Shown here piece by piece: positions 11,811 through 24,049 of a stretch of 64,000 nt of DNA. Origin of the DNA: Endomicrobiales bacterium (GTDB lineage Bacteria > Elusimicrobiota > Endomicrobiia > Endomicrobiales > JALOBY01); the NCBI GenBank assembly GCA_963796955.1, contig CAWCNJ010000004.1, positions 320,001 through 384,000 of the forward strand. The letters run 5' to 3'. The position numbers were made by a program, and so were the translations under genes. Each line of letters starts with the position of its first letter. Position 1 is the first letter of the stretch. The notes below the pieces were generated by a model. The model worked only from the letters and a program-made list of their open reading frames with translations, ran no database searches and was not told where the DNA came from.

Positions 11811-12437
11811 ATGACTTATCAAAAGAGGCATCCAATAATTTATCCGACATTTCATCATTACAGGTTCTGCATCAAAAAGAAAAGATGTGTCCCGGTTGAG
11901 AAAATTGAAAACCGGAACAGTGTTGAAGTTGTTTCTTTCCAAAATCCTGTAACTAATCAAAGGCCCAAAATTTACATTGTAAAACATAAATATCAGATCG
12001 TGTATGTTGGCATCACATCGCAAAGCGTGATCAATAGACTGCGCTACGGGCTAATCGCTGATGGCAAAAACGGGTATCACGGCTATCATTGGAAAACTCT
12101 TAAGGGCAAGTTCGATCTGTTGGTCTGGTGCTTCAAAAAAAATGAGAAGGAACTGGTTGAGGCGATAGAAGCTGAAATTGTATATTTGGTACGGAAGAAT
12201 ACAGACAGGTGGCCTGAGCATCAAACTGAGATACACTTCACTAACAATTACAAACAAGCGTCGTTTGTCGCAAAAAACATATACTCCATTGCCCAGAAAA
12301 AGCGCGTCGGGAAAATACGGGACGTCCTGGACTTGCCCCGGTTTAGTGGACACAGAAAAGGGTATAATATGAAGACCCTGGAGGTGTCCGATGCAAAAGA
12401 GAGACCGGATGCGTTACAATCGGGAGTTCAAGCTTGA
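11811..12437 (+). CDS. GIY-YIG-like nuclease; 3' end extended by read-through into the IS3 element (start uncertain)
   Basis: IYIV...VYVGITSQSVINRL motif and later EAIEAE; removing the IS restores ...RDVLN* just after the insertion point. Confidence 0.6.
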   Translation: MTYQKRHPIIYPTFHHYRFCIKKKRCVPVEKIENRNSVEVVSFQNPVTNQRPKIYIVKHKYQIVYVGITSQSVINRLRYGLIADGKNGYHGYHWKTLKGKFDLLVWCFKKNEKELVEAIEAEIVYLVRKNTDRWPEHQTEIHFTNNYKQASFVAKNIYSIAQKKRVGKIRDVLDLPRFSGHRKGYNMKTLEVSDAKERPDALQSGVQA

Positions 12438-12729
12438 AGCAGTTCGCCGGACGCAGGTAAGCGGCAAAAGTGTTGCCGAAGTAGCCCGCGAGCTTGAGTT
12501 GCCCGTACATCATCTTTACAAGTGGCGAACCGAGGTTGATAAAAAAACCACTGAAGCATTTCCCGGTGTTGGCCACAACACCCCCAACACAGAGCTAGAA
12601 GATCTTCGCCGAGAGAACAAACGCTTGCGCGAAGAGCGGGACGTTTTAAAAAAAAGCCTAATTTACTTTGCCAAGGACGCATTGAACGATTCCGGTTCAT
12701 CAGGGAACACGAACGGGACTTCAGAATAG
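12391..12729 (+). CDS. IS3 OrfA (HTH); A-run slippery site at 12648-12656 for the -1 frameshift to OrfB
   Basis: YNREFKLEAV...VAEVAREL; TTTTAAAAAAAAG; OrfB lies in the -1 frame and is open from the slip site. Confidence 0.92.
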   Translation: MQKRDRMRYNREFKLEAVRRTQVSGKSVAEVARELELPVHHLYKWRTEVDKKTTEAFPGVGHNTPNTELEDLRRENKRLREERDVLKKSLIYFAKDALNDSGSSGNTNGTSE

Positions 12730-12734
12730 CAACA

Positions 12735-13562
12735 ATGTGCGATGTTCTGTCGGTTTCCAGATCCGGATATTATGCATGGAAATCGCGCGGTCAAAGCAAG
12801 CATAGCCGGACAGACACCGTATTACTGAGCAAAATTCGGGGCATTTATGATAAAAACCGGAAAGTATACGGAGCTCCCCGAATTCATGAAGCGCTGAAGT
12901 CCGAAGGTTTAAAGCTGGGACGAAAGCGCGTAGCAAGACTGATGAGAAAGAACGGTATCGTTGCAGCGCCACATCGCCGTATGCGATGGAAACGAGTGTT
13001 TAAGACAGCTATAGCAGCTGACAACCTGGTGCAACAACAGTTCAATGTTCCTGAACCAAACCGGGTCTGGGTCGCAGACATGACGACGTTCTGGACAGGT
13101 TCCGGATGGGTTCATCTGGCGGTTGTGCTAGACCTTTATTCGCGCAGGGTCGTTGGTTGGGCCATTCACGGCCAGATGACGGAGCGCCTTATAGTGAATG
13201 CCCTGGAAATGGCCATTGAGAGTCGCAGACCGACGGGGCCGTTGATTCATCACTCGGACCAGGGTAGCCAGTATAAGAGCTATGCGTTTCAGGCTAGATT
13301 AAAAGAGCATAACATTCAGATGAGCATGAGCCGCAAAGGAAATTGCTGGGACAACGCTGTTGCAGAGAGCTTCTTCAAGACATTGAAGTACGAATTACAA
13401 AACGACGCCAGATTCAATTCTCGCGAAGAAGCGAGAGCACAGTTGTTTGAGTACATCGAAATATTTTATAATCGCAAGAGAATGCACTCAACGTTGGGGT
13501 ATCTTAGCCCCACACAGTTCGAGGCAAAATTACCCGCTCTTGTGTCCACAAAAACGGGTTAA
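12735..13562 (+). CDS. IS3 OrfB DDE transposase/integrase core
   Basis: WVADMT, HHSDQGSQY, DNAVAESFFKTLK. Confidence 0.95.
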   Translation: MCDVLSVSRSGYYAWKSRGQSKHSRTDTVLLSKIRGIYDKNRKVYGAPRIHEALKSEGLKLGRKRVARLMRKNGIVAAPHRRMRWKRVFKTAIAADNLVQQQFNVPEPNRVWVADMTTFWTGSGWVHLAVVLDLYSRRVVGWAIHGQMTERLIVNALEMAIESRRPTGPLIHHSDQGSQYKSYAFQARLKEHNIQMSMSRKGNCWDNAVAESFFKTLKYELQNDARFNSREEARAQLFEYIEIFYNRKRMHSTLGYLSPTQFEAKLPALVSTKTG

Positions 13563-17347: not shown

Positions 17348-18190
17348 ATGGGACGCGCTATTTGGTCCGGGATGGTATCGTTCGGGCTGGTTAATATTCC
17401 TGTGAAGGTTCAGACGGCGGTAACGGCTGATACGATGTCTATGAATTATCTGCGTAAGGACGATCTGTGCCCGATCCAGTACAAGAAGGTTTGCCGCAGT
17501 ACCGGCGAGGAAGTTCCTTTTGAAGACATCGTGCGCGGCTACCAGTACCAGAAAGACGATTACGTGGTGCTTAAAGACGAGGATTTTCAGCAGGCGGCTT
17601 CAAAAAGAACCTATTCGATAGATATAGAACAATTTGTCGCTGAAAAGGAGATAGATTTTAAGTACGTGGAAAAACCGTATTTCCTGGAGCCGGAAAAGAA
17701 AGCGCACACGACCTACGCGCTGTTTCGCACCGCGCTGGAGGAGTCGGGTTTGGTAGGCATCGGCAGGTTCGTTTTGAAGGACCGCGAGCATCTGGTGATG
17801 CTGAAAGCGGATCACGAAGTGATCATGCTTCATGTTATGCGGTTTCCGGCGACGCTGAAAAAAGCCTCTGAGCTGGAGCTGCCTAAAACCATGGAGATCC
17901 CGCGCAATCAGAAGGAATTGGCCCTGGAGCTGATAAACAAACTCAAAGGACATTTTAAGCCCGAACAATATAAAGATAATTATAACGAGCGTCTTAAGCA
18001 GATAATAGATTCCAAGAAGCAGGGTAAGCCCGTGCACGCTGCAAAAGAGGCGGCACCCCGTGAGACGGCGGCAGCAGACATCCTGGATAAACTTAAAAAA
18101 AGCCTGGAGCAGGTACATACGCCCGGGGACATACTAAGGAACGCGAGATCCGATAAGTCCCGGGGGCGTGCCTCGGCCGGGAAGAAGTAA
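17348..18190 (+). CDS. ku: Non-homologous end-joining protein Ku
   Basis: RAIWSG..SFGLVNIPVK N-terminus; basic C-terminal tail; adjacent to ligD. Confidence 0.95.
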   Translation: MGRAIWSGMVSFGLVNIPVKVQTAVTADTMSMNYLRKDDLCPIQYKKVCRSTGEEVPFEDIVRGYQYQKDDYVVLKDEDFQQAASKRTYSIDIEQFVAEKEIDFKYVEKPYFLEPEKKAHTTYALFRTALEESGLVGIGRFVLKDREHLVMLKADHEVIMLHVMRFPATLKKASELELPKTMEIPRNQKELALELINKLKGHFKPEQYKDNYNERLKQIIDSKKQGKPVHAAKEAAPRETAAADILDKLKKSLEQVHTPGDILRNARSDKSRGRASAGKK

Positions 18191-18191
18191 C

Positions 18192-20594
18192 ATGGCTGAG
18201 AAACTTAAGGATTACCGCAAAAAGCGTAATTTTTCAAAAACACCGGAACCCTCCGCGTCAAAGGCTGACGCCGGGGGTTTTCGTTTTGTGGTGCATAAGC
18301 ACAATGCGAGGAACCTTCATTATGACCTGCGGCTGGAGCATAACGGCGTTTTGAAAAGCTGGGCGATACCGAAAGGCATATCTTTTGATCCCGCACAAAA
18401 GCACCTGGCGGTGATGGTGGAAGACCATCCGTTCGATTACAAAGATTTTGAAGGTGTTATCCCGGAAGGCAATTACGGCGCCGGCGAAGTTATTATCTGG
18501 GATGAGGGGACGTACGCCCCGCTTGGTTATAACGGTACGGATCCCGCGGAAGGGGAAAAATTGATGGCGCAGGGCCTGGCGAAAGGGCATGTGACCGTTA
18601 TTTTCTCCGGCAAAAAGCTGAAAGGCGAATTTGCCCTGGTGCGGTTCAAAAGAGAAGATAACCAGTGGCTGATAATTAAGAAAGCCGATGAATATGCCAA
18701 TAGTCCCAACAGCGGCGATGAACGCTCCGCCCGTTCGGGCAAAACCATAGAAGACCTGAAAGAGGATCCGCCGGGAGACAGCAAGATGCCGGATTTCGTT
18801 GAGCCCATGCTCGCCACGCTTGTTGAAGAACCTTTCGACAGGCCGGGCTGGATATTTGAAGTTAAGTGGGACGGGTACCGCACGATCGCGATAATACACG
18901 AGGGTAAAACCAGACTTTTGTCGCGGAACGGAAAGGTGTACACCGGCGAATTTCCCGATATCGCTGCGGCACTGTCGCGTGGCCCCAACGCGATATACGA
19001 CGGTGAAATGGTAGTGCTGGATAAAGACGGACGTTCCGATTTTCAATTGCTGCAGGAATATTTGAAGACGGGTAAAGGGACCGCTGTCTATTATGTTTTT
19101 GATTGTCTGTATAAGGGCTCTGAAGACCTGCGCGCCTCGGCGCTTGAAGAACGCAGGAAGGTTCTGGAAAGCGTGCTGCCGGTTTCAAACATTGTGCGCC
19201 TGAGCGGTTACGTGGCTGCCAATGGGACGGGTTTTTATCGCGCCGCCGAACAAAATGCATTAGAAGGAATAATCGCGAAAAACTTAAAAAGCCGTTACCG
19301 TTCCGGAGAAAGATCTCGCGAGTGGCTGAAAATAAAGGCGCTTAGACAACAGGAGGCTATCGTCAGCGGCTTTACCGAGGGCCGCGCTTCGCGAAAATAT
19401 TTCGGGGCGCTGGTGCTGGGGGTATACCGCGACGGCACATTGTCTTTTGCCGGCCACGCCGGCGGCGGCTTCGACGACGCAGGGTTAAAAGAAATGTATG
19501 CAAAGCTTAAGCCGCTGATAACGGATAAGAGCCCTTTTGAGCATACGCCGAAAACCAATATGCCGGTTACCTGGGTGAAACCGGAACTGATCGTGGAAGT
19601 GAAATTCAGGGAGTGGACGACTGACGGGTTAATGCGCCAGCCCATAGTGCTGGGCCTGCGGGACGATAAGAACCCCGGTGATGTTGTGCAAGAAATGGCG
19701 GACAAGCAGTTTATTAAAACTAAAGCGGTACTGACACACCTTGAGAAGGTGTACTGGCCCGAAGAAGGATATACCAAAAAAGATGTTATAGATTACTATT
19801 GGCGCATGGCCGATTGCATGTTGCCGTACTTGAAGGACCGGCCGCAGTCGCTTAACCGCCACCCGAACGGTATTACCGGCGAGAATTTCTTTCAAAAAAA
19901 TATTGGAGATACAGCACCCCCCTGGGCCAGTACCGTTAAGGTGCCCATGGAGGAAAAAACCATCACGGCCCTGTTGTGCCAGGACCGGGACACCCTGATA
20001 TACATAGCGAACCTGGGCTGCATAGAGATAAATGTCTGGAGTTCCAGCGCCGGCAGCCTGGATAAACCCGATTACATGGTTTTTGATTTTGATCCGGTGG
20101 AAGTGCCGTTCTCTCGCGTGGTTGAGGCGGTGCTTGAGACGAAAAAAGTGCTGGACGATCTGGGCGCGCCCGCGTTTTGCAAGACCACCGGCGGCAAGGG
20201 TATGCATATATATGTACCGGTAAAGCCGGGTTACGATTATGAGCAGACCAAGAACGCGGCCAATCTTATCGGTATGGCGGTAAAACGCCGTCTGCCGGCT
20301 CTGGTAAGCCTTGAAAGAATGCCGGCCAAACGAAAGGGTAAGGTGTATATGGATTACCTGCAAAACCATTGCGGGGCGACCATGGCCGCGCCCTATTCCC
20401 TGCGGCCGAGGGAAGGCGCGAAAGTTTCTACGCCGCTTGATTGGAAAGAGGTTACTTCCAGGCTTGATCCCGCCGACTACAATATTAAGACCATGCTCAA
20501 ACGCGTGGAGGAAAAAGGCGACCTGTGGAAGGGTTTATTCAAGAAAAATCTGGACCTGAAAAAGGCGCTTGACACATTACAAAAATTGCTATAA
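18192..20594 (+). CDS. ligD: DNA ligase D (phosphoesterase-ligase-polymerase)
   Basis: HYDLRLE (PE), EVKWDGYR (ligase), FDFDP and KTTGGKGMH (polymerase). Confidence 0.95.
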   Translation: MAEKLKDYRKKRNFSKTPEPSASKADAGGFRFVVHKHNARNLHYDLRLEHNGVLKSWAIPKGISFDPAQKHLAVMVEDHPFDYKDFEGVIPEGNYGAGEVIIWDEGTYAPLGYNGTDPAEGEKLMAQGLAKGHVTVIFSGKKLKGEFALVRFKREDNQWLIIKKADEYANSPNSGDERSARSGKTIEDLKEDPPGDSKMPDFVEPMLATLVEEPFDRPGWIFEVKWDGYRTIAIIHEGKTRLLSRNGKVYTGEFPDIAAALSRGPNAIYDGEMVVLDKDGRSDFQLLQEYLKTGKGTAVYYVFDCLYKGSEDLRASALEERRKVLESVLPVSNIVRLSGYVAANGTGFYRAAEQNALEGIIAKNLKSRYRSGERSREWLKIKALRQQEAIVSGFTEGRASRKYFGALVLGVYRDGTLSFAGHAGGGFDDAGLKEMYAKLKPLITDKSPFEHTPKTNMPVTWVKPELIVEVKFREWTTDGLMRQPIVLGLRDDKNPGDVVQEMADKQFIKTKAVLTHLEKVYWPEEGYTKKDVIDYYWRMADCMLPYLKDRPQSLNRHPNGITGENFFQKNIGDTAPPWASTVKVPMEEKTITALLCQDRDTLIYIANLGCIEINVWSSSAGSLDKPDYMVFDFDPVEVPFSRVVEAVLETKKVLDDLGAPAFCKTTGGKGMHIYVPVKPGYDYEQTKNAANLIGMAVKRRLPALVSLERMPAKRKGKVYMDYLQNHCGATMAAPYSLRPREGAKVSTPLDWKEVTSRLDPADYNIKTMLKRVEEKGDLWKGLFKKNLDLKKALDTLQKLL

Positions 20595-20628: not shown

Positions 20629-20814
20629 ATGTTCGGCTTAGGATTTCAGGAAATACTTTTATTGCTGGTTATCGCCTTGTTGTTGTTCGGCTCAAAACGC
20701 CTGCCGGAAGTGGGCCGTTCTTTCGGTACCGCCATACGCGAATTCAAGAAAGCGATGAGCGGTGAAGAAGAAGAGAAAAAAGAAACGGCTGTTCCGGGCG
20801 ATGACAAAAAATAA
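20629..20814 (+). CDS. tatA: Twin-arginine translocase TatA
   Basis: MFGLGFQE...LLFGSKRLPEVGRSFG.AIREFKKA; AGGAGG RBS. Confidence 0.95.
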   Translation: MFGLGFQEILLLLVIALLLFGSKRLPEVGRSFGTAIREFKKAMSGEEEEKKETAVPGDDKK

Positions 20815-21562
20815 TTTAGCATTGTTAATGCCGTTGACGGATCATCTTGAAGAGCTGCGCAGCCGTCTTATCTGGTGCCTTGTCGCGATATGCGTGTGCA
20901 CGATAGCCGGGTTTTATGGTGTCACGCACGTGGTCGGCTATTTGAAGGCCGCGGGGGGCGTAAAAGACGCCCTGATAGCGATAAAGCCTGTTGAGGTCGT
21001 TTCGGTTTACGTCAAGATAGCGCTTTCCATAGGCACCTTGCTTGCAAGCCCGGTCATCGCCTGGCATGCCTGGCGGTTTATAGCGCCGGGGTTAAGTGAA
21101 CAGCTGCGTAAATACCTGCCGCTGTGGATCATTTCGATCGTAGCGCTTTTTATGTCGGGCATCGCTTTTGCCTTGTTCGTTTTGATACCCACCGCCTATG
21201 TGTTTTTGATCAACCTGACCCGCTCCCTTGCTGAGCCTATGATCACTCTGAATAGCTATATCTCGTTCATTCTGGCTATGATGCTGGCGAGCGGCATTGT
21301 TTTTGAGATGCCGGCGCTGGCTTTCGCGCTCGCACAGGCCGGGATCATTAACGCCTCTATGATGAGGGCGCACCGCCGCGAGGCTATCTTCGGGCTGGCG
21401 GTAGCCGCGGCCGTTATCACACCGACGACGGATATATTTAATATGCTTATATTCCTTGCGCCGATGCTGGCCCTGTACGAGATCAGTATTTTGGTGGTCG
21501 CGCGCGTCGGGCGGCAAAGGCCGGTAACAGGAGGGGATTATGGATATCAACAAAATGACTGA
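20801..21562 (+). CDS. tatC: Twin-arginine translocase TatC (atypical at the Glu103-equivalent position)
   Basis: LTDHLEELRSRL, WRFIAPGL, FEMP, ITPTTD, LYEIS. Confidence 0.93.
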   Translation: MTKNNLALLMPLTDHLEELRSRLIWCLVAICVCTIAGFYGVTHVVGYLKAAGGVKDALIAIKPVEVVSVYVKIALSIGTLLASPVIAWHAWRFIAPGLSEQLRKYLPLWIISIVALFMSGIAFALFVLIPTAYVFLINLTRSLAEPMITLNSYISFILAMMLASGIVFEMPALAFALAQAGIINASMMRAHRREAIFGLAVAAAVITPTTDIFNMLIFLAPMLALYEISILVVARVGRQRPVTGGDYGYQQND

Positions 21563-22529
21563 CAAACTGGCTGAGGTTCTTAAAGCCCGTTTCTCTCGCG
21601 GCTCGTTCCTGAAATTTGCCGCCGTGACCTTCGGCTCTCTTGCCGTACCACCCATGTTCAAACGAAAAGGCCTGCTGCACGCGGCGACGACCCTTGACCC
21701 GCGCCCTAAAAAGAATATCGCTACCGCATGCGCCCTTGCGGTGGCTAACCATGCGGACCCGGCCGCCGGCACGCGCGCGGCGGTTAACGCTCTCGGCGGC
21801 ATGAAGCTGTTCGTTAAAAAAGGCGATACCGTCGTTGTAAAACCGAACATCGGCTGGGACCGCGCCCCTGAATTTGCCGCCAACACCAATCCCGCGGTCG
21901 TTGAGACACTGGTGAGAATGTGTTTTGAGTCAGGCGCGAAGGTGGTAAAAGTCTTTGATTATACCTGTAACGATTCGCGCCGTACCTACGCGAACAGCGG
22001 AATAGCCGCGGCGGCGAAAAAAGCCGGCGCCGACGTATATTTTGTCGACGACTGGAAATTTTTCCCGGGCAAGTTCCCGGCGGGCGCCATGATGGCGGAC
22101 TGGCCGATCTACCGTGACGCCGTTGCCTGCGATTGTTTTATAAATGTACCGGTAGCCAAACATCACCGTCTGACCGATGTGACGCTTTCTATAAAGAATT
22201 TGATGGGAGTTTGTGGTTCCGGCAGGGGCCAGATGCACCAGGATATCGCCCCGAAGCTCGCCGAGGTGCTGGCCTTTATGCGGCCTGAACTGACGGTGAT
22301 AGACGCCTGCCGCATATTGCTGCGAAACGGCCCGACGGGCGGCAGCGTGGGGGATGTAAAGAAAATGGATACCTTCATCGCTTCCGCCGACCCGGTGCTC
22401 GCCGACGCCTACGCCGCCACGCTGTTCGGCCATAAACCGGGCGATATAGGCTACATCAAAGCCGCCGCCGACAAAGGCCTTGGCAGCCTGGACTTGAAAG
22501 CCGCTAATATCAAAAAGGTAACCGCGTAA
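21540..22529 (+). CDS. DUF362 Fe-S-associated protein with Tat-like signal
   Basis: VVVKPNIGWD, NTNP, INVPVAKHH, TLSIKNLMG, DPVLAD; N-terminal SRGSFLK plus hydrophobic stretch. Confidence 0.88.
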   Translation: MDINKMTDKLAEVLKARFSRGSFLKFAAVTFGSLAVPPMFKRKGLLHAATTLDPRPKKNIATACALAVANHADPAAGTRAAVNALGGMKLFVKKGDTVVVKPNIGWDRAPEFAANTNPAVVETLVRMCFESGAKVVKVFDYTCNDSRRTYANSGIAAAAKKAGADVYFVDDWKFFPGKFPAGAMMADWPIYRDAVACDCFINVPVAKHHRLTDVTLSIKNLMGVCGSGRGQMHQDIAPKLAEVLAFMRPELTVIDACRILLRNGPTGGSVGDVKKMDTFIASADPVLADAYAATLFGHKPGDIGYIKAAADKGLGSLDLKAANIKKVTA

Positions 22530-24049
22530 TGACCGTTGTCCGCCGGACTGTTCAGATACTGGTTTTTACCGCTTTTGCCGCCATCGTCTGGATGACCCGT
22601 TATCCGCTGAGCGTTCAGGTGAACCCTTCGCTGTTATTTAAAGCCGACCCGTTAATAATGACGATAACGTCCGTCGCGGAACGTGTGTTGCTGCCGGGCC
22701 TGTTGATCGCCGCAGCTATCCTTTTGCTGACGCTGCTGTTCGGCCGGGTCTTTTGCGGCTGGCTCTGTCCGCTGGGCTCGCTTTCCGACGGCGTCGCTTT
22801 CGTAACACGCCGCTTCCTTAAGCTTTTCCGCTTCAATTTGAAAGACCATCCCCTGCCCGCCGGGCTTTTCTTAAAATATATCCTGCTTGCCGCTATCGCG
22901 GCGCTTGCTGTGGCAGGTATCCAGTTCGTCTGGCTTTTTGATCCGCTGACAATAGTTGTGCGCAGCCTTTCCTTCAGCGTGATACCCTTAGCGAACCATA
23001 TTTTGGACTCGGTAAGCGCGGCGCTTATTCAGGCAGCGAATTTCTACCAGCCTCTCGATAATCTGTACCATGTCCTTAAAGAAGCCTTGTTCGATCCGCG
23101 CCGTCCGGTTTTTCCTCACGCGCCGGTAATCAGTATAATTTTCACCGCTATCCTGCTGCTGCCGTTCGTTGTGCGGCGGTTCTGGTGCCGTTACCTGTGC
23201 CCGCTGGGCGGTATGCTGGCCCTGGTCGCGAAATTCTCTTTCCTGAAACGCCATTCCACCGTCTGCGCCGGAAAATGCAGGTCCTGCAAGGATATTTGCC
23301 GCATGGGCGCCATCCGCGAAGACAATTCTTATATGCCCTCGGAATGCATTGTCTGCATGGACTGCGTGCGCTACTGTCCGTCGCAGAAAACTTCTTTCAA
23401 TTTTGGTGTGAATGCCGCGCTGCCCGCAAAAGCTGCACAAGACACTCAGGGGAATAAAGGTATGTCGCGCTCCCAGTTCATGGGCTGGGCAACGGCCTCG
23501 CTTGCCTTGCTGCTGCCGAAAGCCGCCCAGGCAGCCATTAAATATAAAAAGAGCACGGTCTTACGGCCGCCTGCCGCCTTGCCGGAGGCAGCGTTCGTAC
23601 AGCGTTGCGTACGGTGCGGTAACTGCATGAAAGTGTGCGTTACCAATTGCCTGCAGCCGGTGTTGCTGGAAAGCGGCCCCGAGGGCATCTGGACGCCTAA
23701 GATCAACGCAAAGATCGGTTACTGTGAGTACGGCTGCACGCTCTGCGGTCATGTGTGCCCGACCGGCGCTATACCGCCATTGAGCGTTGAGCAAAAAGCC
23801 CGCACCAAGATGGGCCTGGCAGAGATACTGCCCGATACCTGCATACCCTGGGCCACCGGGCAGGACTGCCTGGTTTGCGAAGAACACTGCCCAACGGCCC
23901 GAAAAGCCATACAGGTAAAAGAAATGAATCGGAACGGCAGGAAGGTATTGGTGCCCTACATTGATACAGAAGCTTGCGTCGGCTGCGCACTATGCGAGAA
24001 TGTCTGCCCCGCCTCACCGAAAGGTGTCGCTGTAAGGCCTTTCGCCTGA
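22529..24049 (+). CDS. Membrane polyferredoxin (NapH/MauN-like TM part fused to a MauM/NapG-like multi-4Fe-4S domain)
   Basis: GRVFCGWLCPLG, RFWCRYLCPLG, several CxxCxxCxxxC motifs, LRPP..L.E..F..RCVRCGNC. Confidence 0.9.
   Translation: MTVVRRTVQILVFTAFAAIVWMTRYPLSVQVNPSLLFKADPLIMTITSVAERVLLPGLLIAAAILLLTLLFGRVFCGWLCPLGSLSDGVAFVTRRFLKLFRFNLKDHPLPAGLFLKYILLAAIAALAVAGIQFVWLFDPLTIVVRSLSFSVIPLANHILDSVSAALIQAANFYQPLDNLYHVLKEALFDPRRPVFPHAPVISIIFTAILLLPFVVRRFWCRYLCPLGGMLALVAKFSFLKRHSTVCAGKCRSCKDICRMGAIREDNSYMPSECIVCMDCVRYCPSQKTSFNFGVNAALPAKAAQDTQGNKGMSRSQFMGWATASLALLLPKAAQAAIKYKKSTVLRPPAALPEAAFVQRCVRCGNCMKVCVTNCLQPVLLESGPEGIWTPKINAKIGYCEYGCTLCGHVCPTGAIPPLSVEQKARTKMGLAEILPDTCIPWATGQDCLVCEEHCPTARKAIQVKEMNRNGRKVLVPYIDTEACVGCALCENVCPASPKGVAVRPFA

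Follow-up and report, generated by a model that had tools for sequence, protein, structure and literature searches.

The structure of the Escherichia coli TatBC receptor of the twin-arginine translocation (Tat) machinery with MdoD, published in 2026, describes how the two arginines of a Tat signal are held (PDB 9e01; PMC13323110). The first arginine (Arg1) is water-bonded to Glu15 of TatC and stacked under Phe94, the second (Arg2) forms a salt bridge to Glu103 and packs on Tyr100, and the consensus Phe occupies a pocket made by Phe94, Leu9, His12 and Leu13; TatC E103A, a transport-inactive control in that work, was binding-negative. A second structure paper gives the same Arg1 contacts, with the Arg2-Glu103 bridge as a prediction only (10.1101/2025.09.16.676506), and Phe94 and Glu103 have been termed almost completely invariant, with the twin arginine itself likewise nearly constant in all of life (10.1101/135103). 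Here we describe a tatA-tatC operon of an Endomicrobiales bacterium, located in a 64,000-nucleotide stretch of DNA (assembly GCA_963796955.1, contig CAWCNJ010000004.1, positions 320,001 to 384,000; hereafter the window), in which TatC has lost precisely the two Arg2 contacts while keeping those for Arg1 and Phe, and in which the signals of two adjoining putative cargo proteins lack Arg2. It seems probable that the window encodes a working minimal TatAC translocase together with two cargoes, and that its receptor no longer reads Arg2. The features of the locus are:

20629..20814, forward strand: tatA, 61 amino acids (PF02416, 73.9 bits; TIGR01411, 73.5 bits against a cut-off of 53.9)
20801..21562, forward strand: tatC, 253 amino acids if it starts at ATG 20801 (database call P0024), 244 if at ATG 20828
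20834..20854, forward strand: residues of the first transmembrane helix of TatC that touch Arg1 and the consensus Phe (equivalents of Leu9, His12, Leu13 and Glu15), intact
21077..21079, forward strand: equivalent of TatC Phe94, which stacks on Arg1 and belongs to the Phe pocket, intact
21095..21106, forward strand: TatC loop S-E-Q-L, in which Ser takes the place of Tyr100 and Leu that of Glu103, both Arg2 contacts gone
21540..22529, forward strand: DUF362 gene, 329 amino acids, putative Tat cargo (PF04015, 166 bits; LarA-like fold)
21546..21584, forward strand: amphipathic N-terminal helix of the DUF362 protein, residues 3-15, ahead of the motif
21594..21614, forward strand: single-Arg Tat-like motif S-R-G-S-F-L-K of the DUF362 protein, after which come an h-region and a basic c-region
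22529..24049, forward strand: gene for a polytopic polyferredoxin, 506 amino acids, a NapH-like N-half fused to a NapG-like C-half
23465..23482, forward strand: internal single-Arg Tat-like motif S-R-S-Q-F-M of the polyferredoxin, where the NapG-like half begins

The tatC product can be assigned to TatC by profile (PF00902, 193.9 bits against a cut-off of 25.1; TIGR00945, 183.2 against 132.7) and by fold, with a predicted model (pLDDT 79.9) that matched seven structures at E<=0.001, every one a TatC (TM-score 0.81 to 4b4a and 0.70 to 9e01_A), yet it is not a canonical twin-arginine receptor. A first-pass annotation of this DNA had placed Leu (21104-21106) where E. coli has Glu103 and had called the other hallmarks intact, and both statements agree with the translation and with alignments to structure chains. 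Against the E. coli TatC chain 9dzz_A, which begins at residue 82, the loop aligns without a gap, with Leu opposite Glu103 and Ser opposite Tyr100, so that the Tyr100 equivalent is also lost, where the annotation had named Glu103 alone. The Myxococcus xanthus and N. salsuginis TatCs align in the identical register, and the Aquifex alignment has a one-residue gap that leaves Gln opposite the Glu; a Glu of the window protein (21098-21100, position 101) falls opposite Glu103 in none of the alignments. Equivalents of His12, Leu13, Glu15, Phe94, Pro97, Leu99, Glu170 and Asp211 are present, as are the core residues Lys73, Pro85, Glu/Gln170 and Asp211. The system thus shares with the E. coli receptor (PMC13323110) the TatC fold, His12, Glu15, Phe94 and Leu99, and in its signals the cap residue, Arg1 and Phe; it differs in a TatC without Glu103 and Tyr100, in cargo with an unconstrained Arg2 position, in having no detected TatB, and in the extra amphipathic helix of the DUF362 signal.

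That both adjacent signals lack Arg2, as the first-pass annotation had reported, was borne out by translation (SRGSFLK and SRSQFM). Two consecutive arginines are absent, and the cap residue, the consensus Phe, a moderately hydrophobic h-region and a basic c-region are present, features by which these signals read as Tat-like, not twin-arginine. The DUF362 motif falls at the aligned RR-motif position of its homologues, and SRSQFM, which precedes a weakly hydrophobic segment and basic residues, stands where 44 of 50 outgroup polyferredoxins have RR. When N-termini of open reading frames (ORFs) from the same genome were shuffled, the pattern [ST]R..F[LIVMF] followed by a hydrophobic stretch arose by chance in 19 of 17,740. 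A sequencing error at the RG codons was considered and is unlikely, given that three close genomes read RA there. Position homology, gene linkage and the type of cargo all suggest that export of these proteins would depend on Tat.

The nature of the cargo is consistent with this. Iron-sulfur domains receive their clusters in the cytoplasm and need Tat, and the NapG-like half of the polyferredoxin carries several four-Cys motifs. Its profile matches all lie under cut-off (TIGR02163 over residues 2-151; PRK09476/TIGR00397 over residues 323-502), and upstream of the motif three regions, one of them broad, reach >=1.6 over a 19-residue hydropathy window, a result that does not fix the number of helices; the Tat segment scores lower. 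The DUF362 model predicts a helix at residues 3-15, a break, and a second helix at 20-35 that begins at the Arg after the Ser cap, and the predicted fold matches lactate and malate racemases (LarA-like fold, E about 1e-4), in keeping with the placement of DUF362 and LarA in one Pfam clan (PMC11770544). We infer that the DUF362 protein may be an outward-facing enzyme wired to the membrane through the polyferredoxin. The nearest described analogue of the latter is the dual Sec/Tat protein PFD of deltaproteobacterium MLMS-1 (Q1NSB0; PMC5449189), likewise a NapH-NapG fusion with an internal motif, a weakly hydrophobic last segment and basic residues; the available account of PFD reports five transmembrane segments, the fifth being the weakly hydrophobic one, and a conserved RR, whose change to KK abolished export in E. 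coli, whereas the window motif is SRSQFM.

The same changes recur together in orthologous operons. A TatC match was found in 39 of 61 genomes near the window, and these TatCs are of two kinds. Kind A belongs to tatA-tatC-DUF362-polyferredoxin operons and forms a clade of 29 rows (support 99) in which Glu103 and Tyr100 are each present in 0 of 29; every one of the 28 filled rows has His12 and Glu/Asp15, and Phe/Tyr94 is found throughout the 29. Among 28 readable DUF362 signals of these operons there are 1 RR, 22 RK and 5 non-basic forms (G, A, A, A, Q at Arg2), and the 23 readable polyferredoxin motifs comprise 0 RR, 14 RK and 9 non-basic, which gives RR in 1 of 51 neighbour signals overall (L077 left out as a duplicate). 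These counts are not independent, as a single family supplies every one of the 14 RK polyferredoxins and 17 RK DUF362s; two genomes read afterwards have RK in both proteins. Residues found at the Arg2 position of cargo signals are K, R, G, A, S, T, Q, E, H, I and F, with Lys the commonest replacement. Within the order, the clade DUF362 occurs in 31 of 104 genomes and adjoins a kind-A tatC in 30 of the 31 (two at contig breaks). The co-variation of the Glu103 position with cargo Arg2 that the first-pass annotation had proposed as a check is seen across orthologous operons, as well as in a separate TatC lineage described below, and the changes in receptor and signal match structurally and are lineage-wide.

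Three side observations concern these operons. In G404 (L455:297-1304) the only tatC is canonical, and the clade DUF362 stands as an orphan whose signal has decayed. In G012 (L038:2794-4337) the polyferredoxin lies in two ORFs, the NapG-like one starting just before TRAQFL in the manner of a stand-alone Tat signal, which may be a true split or an assembly frameshift. A C-terminal Tyr that is invariant in the clade TatC was set aside: its codon overlaps the DUF362 start codon in the window, and its conservation therefore need not reflect a constraint at the protein level.

A neighbouring acid, at 101 in the window and at 102 or 100 in relatives, could have replaced Glu103, in which case the Arg2 site would be shifted and not lost. 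The window does have Glu at 101, Glu is found at 102 in 12 of the 29 orthologues, mostly with RK cargo, 8 of the 19 Omnitrophota-type TatCs that attach only loosely have Glu at 100, and the Aquifex alignment moves the register by one. As a general stand-in the Glu two residues upstream, which the first-pass annotation had named as a possible refutation, was rejected: it is present in only 3 of 29 orthologues, aligns with Glu103 nowhere, and is Val and Asp in the two nearest genomes with RA signals. Moreover, with Gly and Ser at Arg2 the window cargo offers an acid nothing to bind. We consider a shifted acid very unlikely, although such a reading may hold for the RK subgroup alone.

A tree of 234 mature DUF362 domains, built with the signals excluded, set apart a clade of 161 rows (support 99); the other 73 rows served as outgroup, and RR was present in 72 of the 73 outgroup signals. 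The 159 readable clade signals comprise 43 RR, 98 RK and 18 non-basic, the last spread over many branches; TatC state is known for part of the rows in this tree only, and the motif of one row was set by hand. Outgroup polyferredoxins (n=50) have 44 RR and 6 KR, so that Arg2 is kept in 50 of 50 and the variants lose Arg1 only. Glu103 was found in 125 of 126 TatCs outside the Glu-less groups, a control set that includes 59 Acidobacteriota near-relatives (these came from a single-motif contig scan with the kind-A alignment and serve as controls only) and two Glu-bearing Omnitrophota rows that sit in a weak fork with Glu-less ones. Among the best 120 database matches to the kind-A profile, the window's own protein included, Glu103 is absent from 119.

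Glu103 was lost a second time in two other Elusimicrobiota families, where 22 TatCs with Trp, Phe or Leu at this position are nested among Glu-bearing ones (quick tree, support 99). A single origin of both Glu-less groups was rejected (p-AU 0.004, approximately unbiased test, loop columns removed, 42 rows), in a test with groups defined from an earlier tree. Membrane-anchored Rieske orthologues of this second lineage have RR in 0 of 7 (3 RK, 1 RA, 3 RG), as against 13 of 13 in sister families with Glu103, one truncated row having been left out. A second Rieske type in the Glu-less genomes has RQ in two and RR in one, and three proteins that we take to be nitrate-reductase-like from their Cys motif carry RK. 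RR was present at 9 of 12 Tat-signal sites of this lineage, a sample drawn from 20 fetched of 80 listed with an RR-trained search model that favours RR. By these comparisons, the Arg2-Glu103 pair was lost on both sides in two separate TatC lineages, with different cargo families. In another Elusimicrobiota family with a Glu103-less TatC (L218, L260), 4Fe-4S proteins beside tatC (L467, L469) have SRKQFL, and others RR.

One genus of a second-lineage family, g75, departs from this pattern. Its TatC is long-branched and unrelated to that of its family, with Glu103 in 12 of 12 (L434, L436-L441, L444-L447, L266) and, in 11 of 12, Arg in place of Tyr100, and its Rieske orthologues are RG in 7 of 7, grouping with those of Glu-less relatives that have RG or RA. 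Most simply, the genus would have inherited RG and had its tatC replaced afterwards, from which it follows that RG signals can be served by a TatC with Glu103; the Arg at position 100 might itself fill the Arg2 site.

Persistence of RG with a Glu103 TatC in seven g75 genomes fits an alternative in which the ordinary TatC already tolerates R-x in low-load cargo, signals drifted first and Glu103 then became dispensable, so that relaxed selection was shared and the receptor is unchanged. The same alternative draws on E. coli Tat, by which TorA-GFP was exported when Arg2 was changed to Lys, Asn or Gln (PMC1182353), although by another account even Lys there is poorly tolerated (PMC7317946), and on the Omnitrophota with Glu103, where RK makes up 3 of the 8 signals. 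Retention of Arg2 throughout the outgroup DUF362s and polyferredoxins, with a single exception, indicates that such drift is unusual in these families; the g75 TatC, with its Arg at Tyr100, may itself be altered, and the g75 nitrate-reductase-like protein has RR where its three Glu-less orthologues have RK. E103A also kills transport of RR cargo in E. coli, and yet genomes with a Glu-less TatC retain RR cargo, a sign that the receptor has changed. We therefore regard drift under an unchanged receptor as unlikely.

Related Glu103-less TatCs are common in Omnitrophota. The clade DUF362 was found in 21 of 201 Omnitrophota genomes, and tatC was detected in 20 of the 21. The 16 genomes in which a Glu-less TatC is the single one detected have 32 signals (11 RR, 14 RK, 7 non-basic), and the four with a Glu103 TatC have eight (5 RR, 3 RK, 0 non-basic). 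RR plainly persists beside Glu-less TatC in this phylum. Directly beside a Glu103-less tatC in L102:807-1937 and L181:1-1531 are genes for radical-SAM-like proteins with N-terminal TRRDFF, SRRIFL and TRKEFF, which we take to be of the AmmeMemoRadiSam type.

These data bear on the proposal, made in the first-pass annotation, that the translocase is orthogonal to ordinary Tat: the Glu-less TatAC would read single-Arg signals only, the ordinary TatC could not read them, and there would be no crossing in one cell. Six genomes contain both TatC kinds, and in 6 of 6 the kind-B tatC, which carries Glu103, follows an RR polyferredoxin-like gene, while the kind-A neighbours are RK in 12 of 12 signals. 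This sorting by motif concerns gene adjacency. It favours orthogonality, as do the near absence of RR from the Endomicrobiales-type operons and the lack of RR cargo in pattern and profile scans of the window genome. The proposal is not supported. Against it are the 11 RR signals among the 32 of Omnitrophota with one detected, Glu-less TatC, the predominance of RR (9 of 12) among the sites fetched from the second Glu-less lineage, the RR radical-SAM proteins of L102 and L181, and the occurrence of RG signals together with a Glu103 TatC in g75; the commonest replacement, Lys, is tolerated by E. coli Tat, and the replacement of Arg2 by at least 10 different residues implies a constraint lost and not a new letter. 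Strict orthogonality thus seems quite unlikely. RR signals are probably still accepted by the Glu-less TatAC, which would mean that the code was loosened, not swapped. A weaker form, in which Glu103/Tyr100-less TatACs read single-Arg [S/T]-R-x-x-F signals (Gly, Ala, Ser, Thr and other residues following the Arg), aided by the amphipathic N-terminal helix, that the ordinary TatC cannot usefully export, would make them a one-way private channel, arisen repeatedly and separating cargo in two-tatC genomes; this we hold to be possible, if rather doubtful.

The second TatCs of such cells have peculiarities of their own. The Glu103-bearing TatCs in L054, L055, L061, L249, L253, L027 and L248 have Ala at Glu15 (Asp in L059), and their neighbours keep RR; the two translocases of these two-tatC cells each lack a different acidic contact. 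G005 and G016 (L052, L053) have a second tatC with Glu103 and His at Glu15, beside haem/sirohaem synthesis-like genes.

In the window genome, which is 81% complete, profile searches returned a single TatC and the tatA product as the sole TatA/B-family match, on which the TatB model scores under its cut-off. The locus therefore presents one TatA-family protein and TatC, with TatB not found and cargo genes adjoining, the arrangement of a minimal TatAC. Linkage of the four genes by overlapping frames had been claimed, and it stands for tatC and the DUF362 gene (23 nt) and for the DUF362 and polyferredoxin genes (1 nt); tatA and tatC overlap only if tatC starts at ATG 20801, as ATG 20828 leaves a 13-nt gap. 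The Tat-signal model TIGR01409 gave nothing above cut-off in the genome, and two pattern scans of its 3,918 ORFs, which recovered both neighbours of tatC, found no credible RR cargo; other RR or R-x candidates were discarded on inspection as integral membrane proteins, Sec-like N-termini or shadow ORFs. No second, canonical tatC was found, in line with a dedicated TatAC, and with one tatC, one tatA and no other credible cargo the translocase does look dedicated, as first suggested. The phoD-tatAd-tatCd operon of Bacillus subtilis is similar in having TatA and TatC only, encoded with cargo, and like the parallel minimal translocases of Bacillus, some window relatives have two TatAC operons, each with its own neighbours (PMC6708511). 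Here, however, the two translocases differ at the Arg2 contacts and their neighbours at Arg2, a difference that the available text on Bacillus does not describe (PMC6708511).

If the receptor no longer reads Arg2, the signal would dock as in E. coli, with binding resting on [S/T]-R-x-x-F, on a more hydrophobic h-region and, in the DUF362 protein, on the amphipathic N-terminal helix. The DUF362 protein would be exported in the folded state; Sec would insert the N-terminal helices of the polyferredoxin, whose last segment would pass the iron-sulfur-loaded NapG-like half to Tat. Signals of the DUF362 clade differ from the outgroup in ways that could serve as compensation. Ser or Thr precedes Arg in 156 of 159 clade signals and in 9 of 73 outgroup signals, median h-region hydrophobicity is 2.03 against 1.65, and the motif lies at a median residue 16 against about 1. 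The N-terminal extension exceeds its own shuffles in hydrophobic moment in 96 of 109 homologues and is mostly absent from the outgroup. Added signal hydrophobicity rescues E. coli TatC E103K, and laboratory suppressors of E103K or F94D and of KK signals likewise bypass the twin-arginine site through a more hydrophobic h-region (10.1101/135103); those are engineered E. coli single mutants, and what we describe is a natural, conserved receptor-signal pair. A finer relation, in which hydrophobicity tracks the Arg2 residue within the clade, was examined and dropped (medians 2.12 non-basic, 2.11 RR, 1.86 RK), the difference lying between clades instead.

More hydrophobic signals also engage Sec more readily (10.1101/135103; PMC7317946), which raises the alternative that this Tat system is decaying, or that its cargo leaves by Sec or stays inside, the motifs being relics. 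Inactivity of E103A in E. coli would fit decay, as would a module kept without a detected tatC in one genome, G070. The genes themselves argue otherwise. The ratio of nonsynonymous to synonymous substitution (dN/dS) is 0.08-0.24 for kind-A tatC (8 pairs), 0.07-0.17 for kind B (3 pairs; several dS values are above 1, hence rough), 0.06-0.17 for DUF362 and 0.09-0.20 for the polyferredoxin; tatC is under purifying selection. None of the 13 aligned DUF362s departs from Arg1 or Phe, TatC keeps their contacts and Lys73/Asp211, the operon is retained across several families of the order, and the NapG-like half has its four-Cys motifs. Decay or rerouting of the cargo is, in our judgment, highly improbable.

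Several points weigh against a receptor that has ceased to read Arg2. The evidence amounts to two independent losses, not dozens, and the Omnitrophota contrast (non-basic 7/32 against 0/8) is in the right direction, weak, and from a small sample. The RG Rieske proteins beside a Glu103 TatC in g75 imply that loss of Arg2 does not require loss of Glu103, and G070 (L459:1171-3770) has an intact RK/RA module with tatC not detected. Because E103A leaves E. coli TatC inactive and binding-negative, the reading calls for compensation, which is itself inferred, and the differences in hydrophobicity and N-terminal helix are one phylogenetic contrast each. Finally, the incompleteness of the window genome means that a further tatC or RR cargo may be missing from it.

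Signals with one arginine missing are known elsewhere, in Salmonella TtrB (KR), in penicillin amidase and in organellar Rieske proteins with KR or RK, the mitochondrial ones among them (PMC1182353; PMC6251230). In the available text of these sources they are single substrates for which no matching change in TatC is described, although organellar TatC may conceivably carry a change at Glu103; TtrB has Lys for Arg1, while in the window lineage it is Arg2 that is lost, often to a non-basic residue, lineage-wide and together with the receptor. A full-text search, covering the main text of papers that are mostly outside subscription journals, found no report of a natural Glu103-less TatC lineage matched by its cargo. 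Natural one-Arg signals and parallel minimal translocases are thus already known, and what is new here is a lineage-wide loss of the Arg2 contacts matched by cargo.

The nearest named relatives are Endomicrobiales and other Elusimicrobiota genomes. Directly 5' of tatA, on the same strand (17348-20594, forward), are what we take to be Ku-like and LigD-like genes of non-homologous end joining, and farther upstream (12391-13562, forward) two ORFs resemble an IS3-family transposase pair. A metallo-beta-lactamase-fold hydrolase (PF12706; 24065-24877, forward) lies 15 nt 3' of the polyferredoxin gene.

For genome annotation, the finding means that RR-based predictors will miss Tat cargo in these lineages, as TIGR01409 does here despite two candidates beside tatC. 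If the channel were truly one-way private, it would supply parts with which engineered bacteria could be given a second route of export. These operons may also provide ready-made receptor and signal pairs for probing the role of the second arginine, whether in affinity, in triggering or in excluding Sec cargo, and how a receptor copes without it. On at least two occasions in nature the Arg2-Glu103 pair has disappeared from receptor and signal alike, an outcome that the 2026 structure would lead one to expect.

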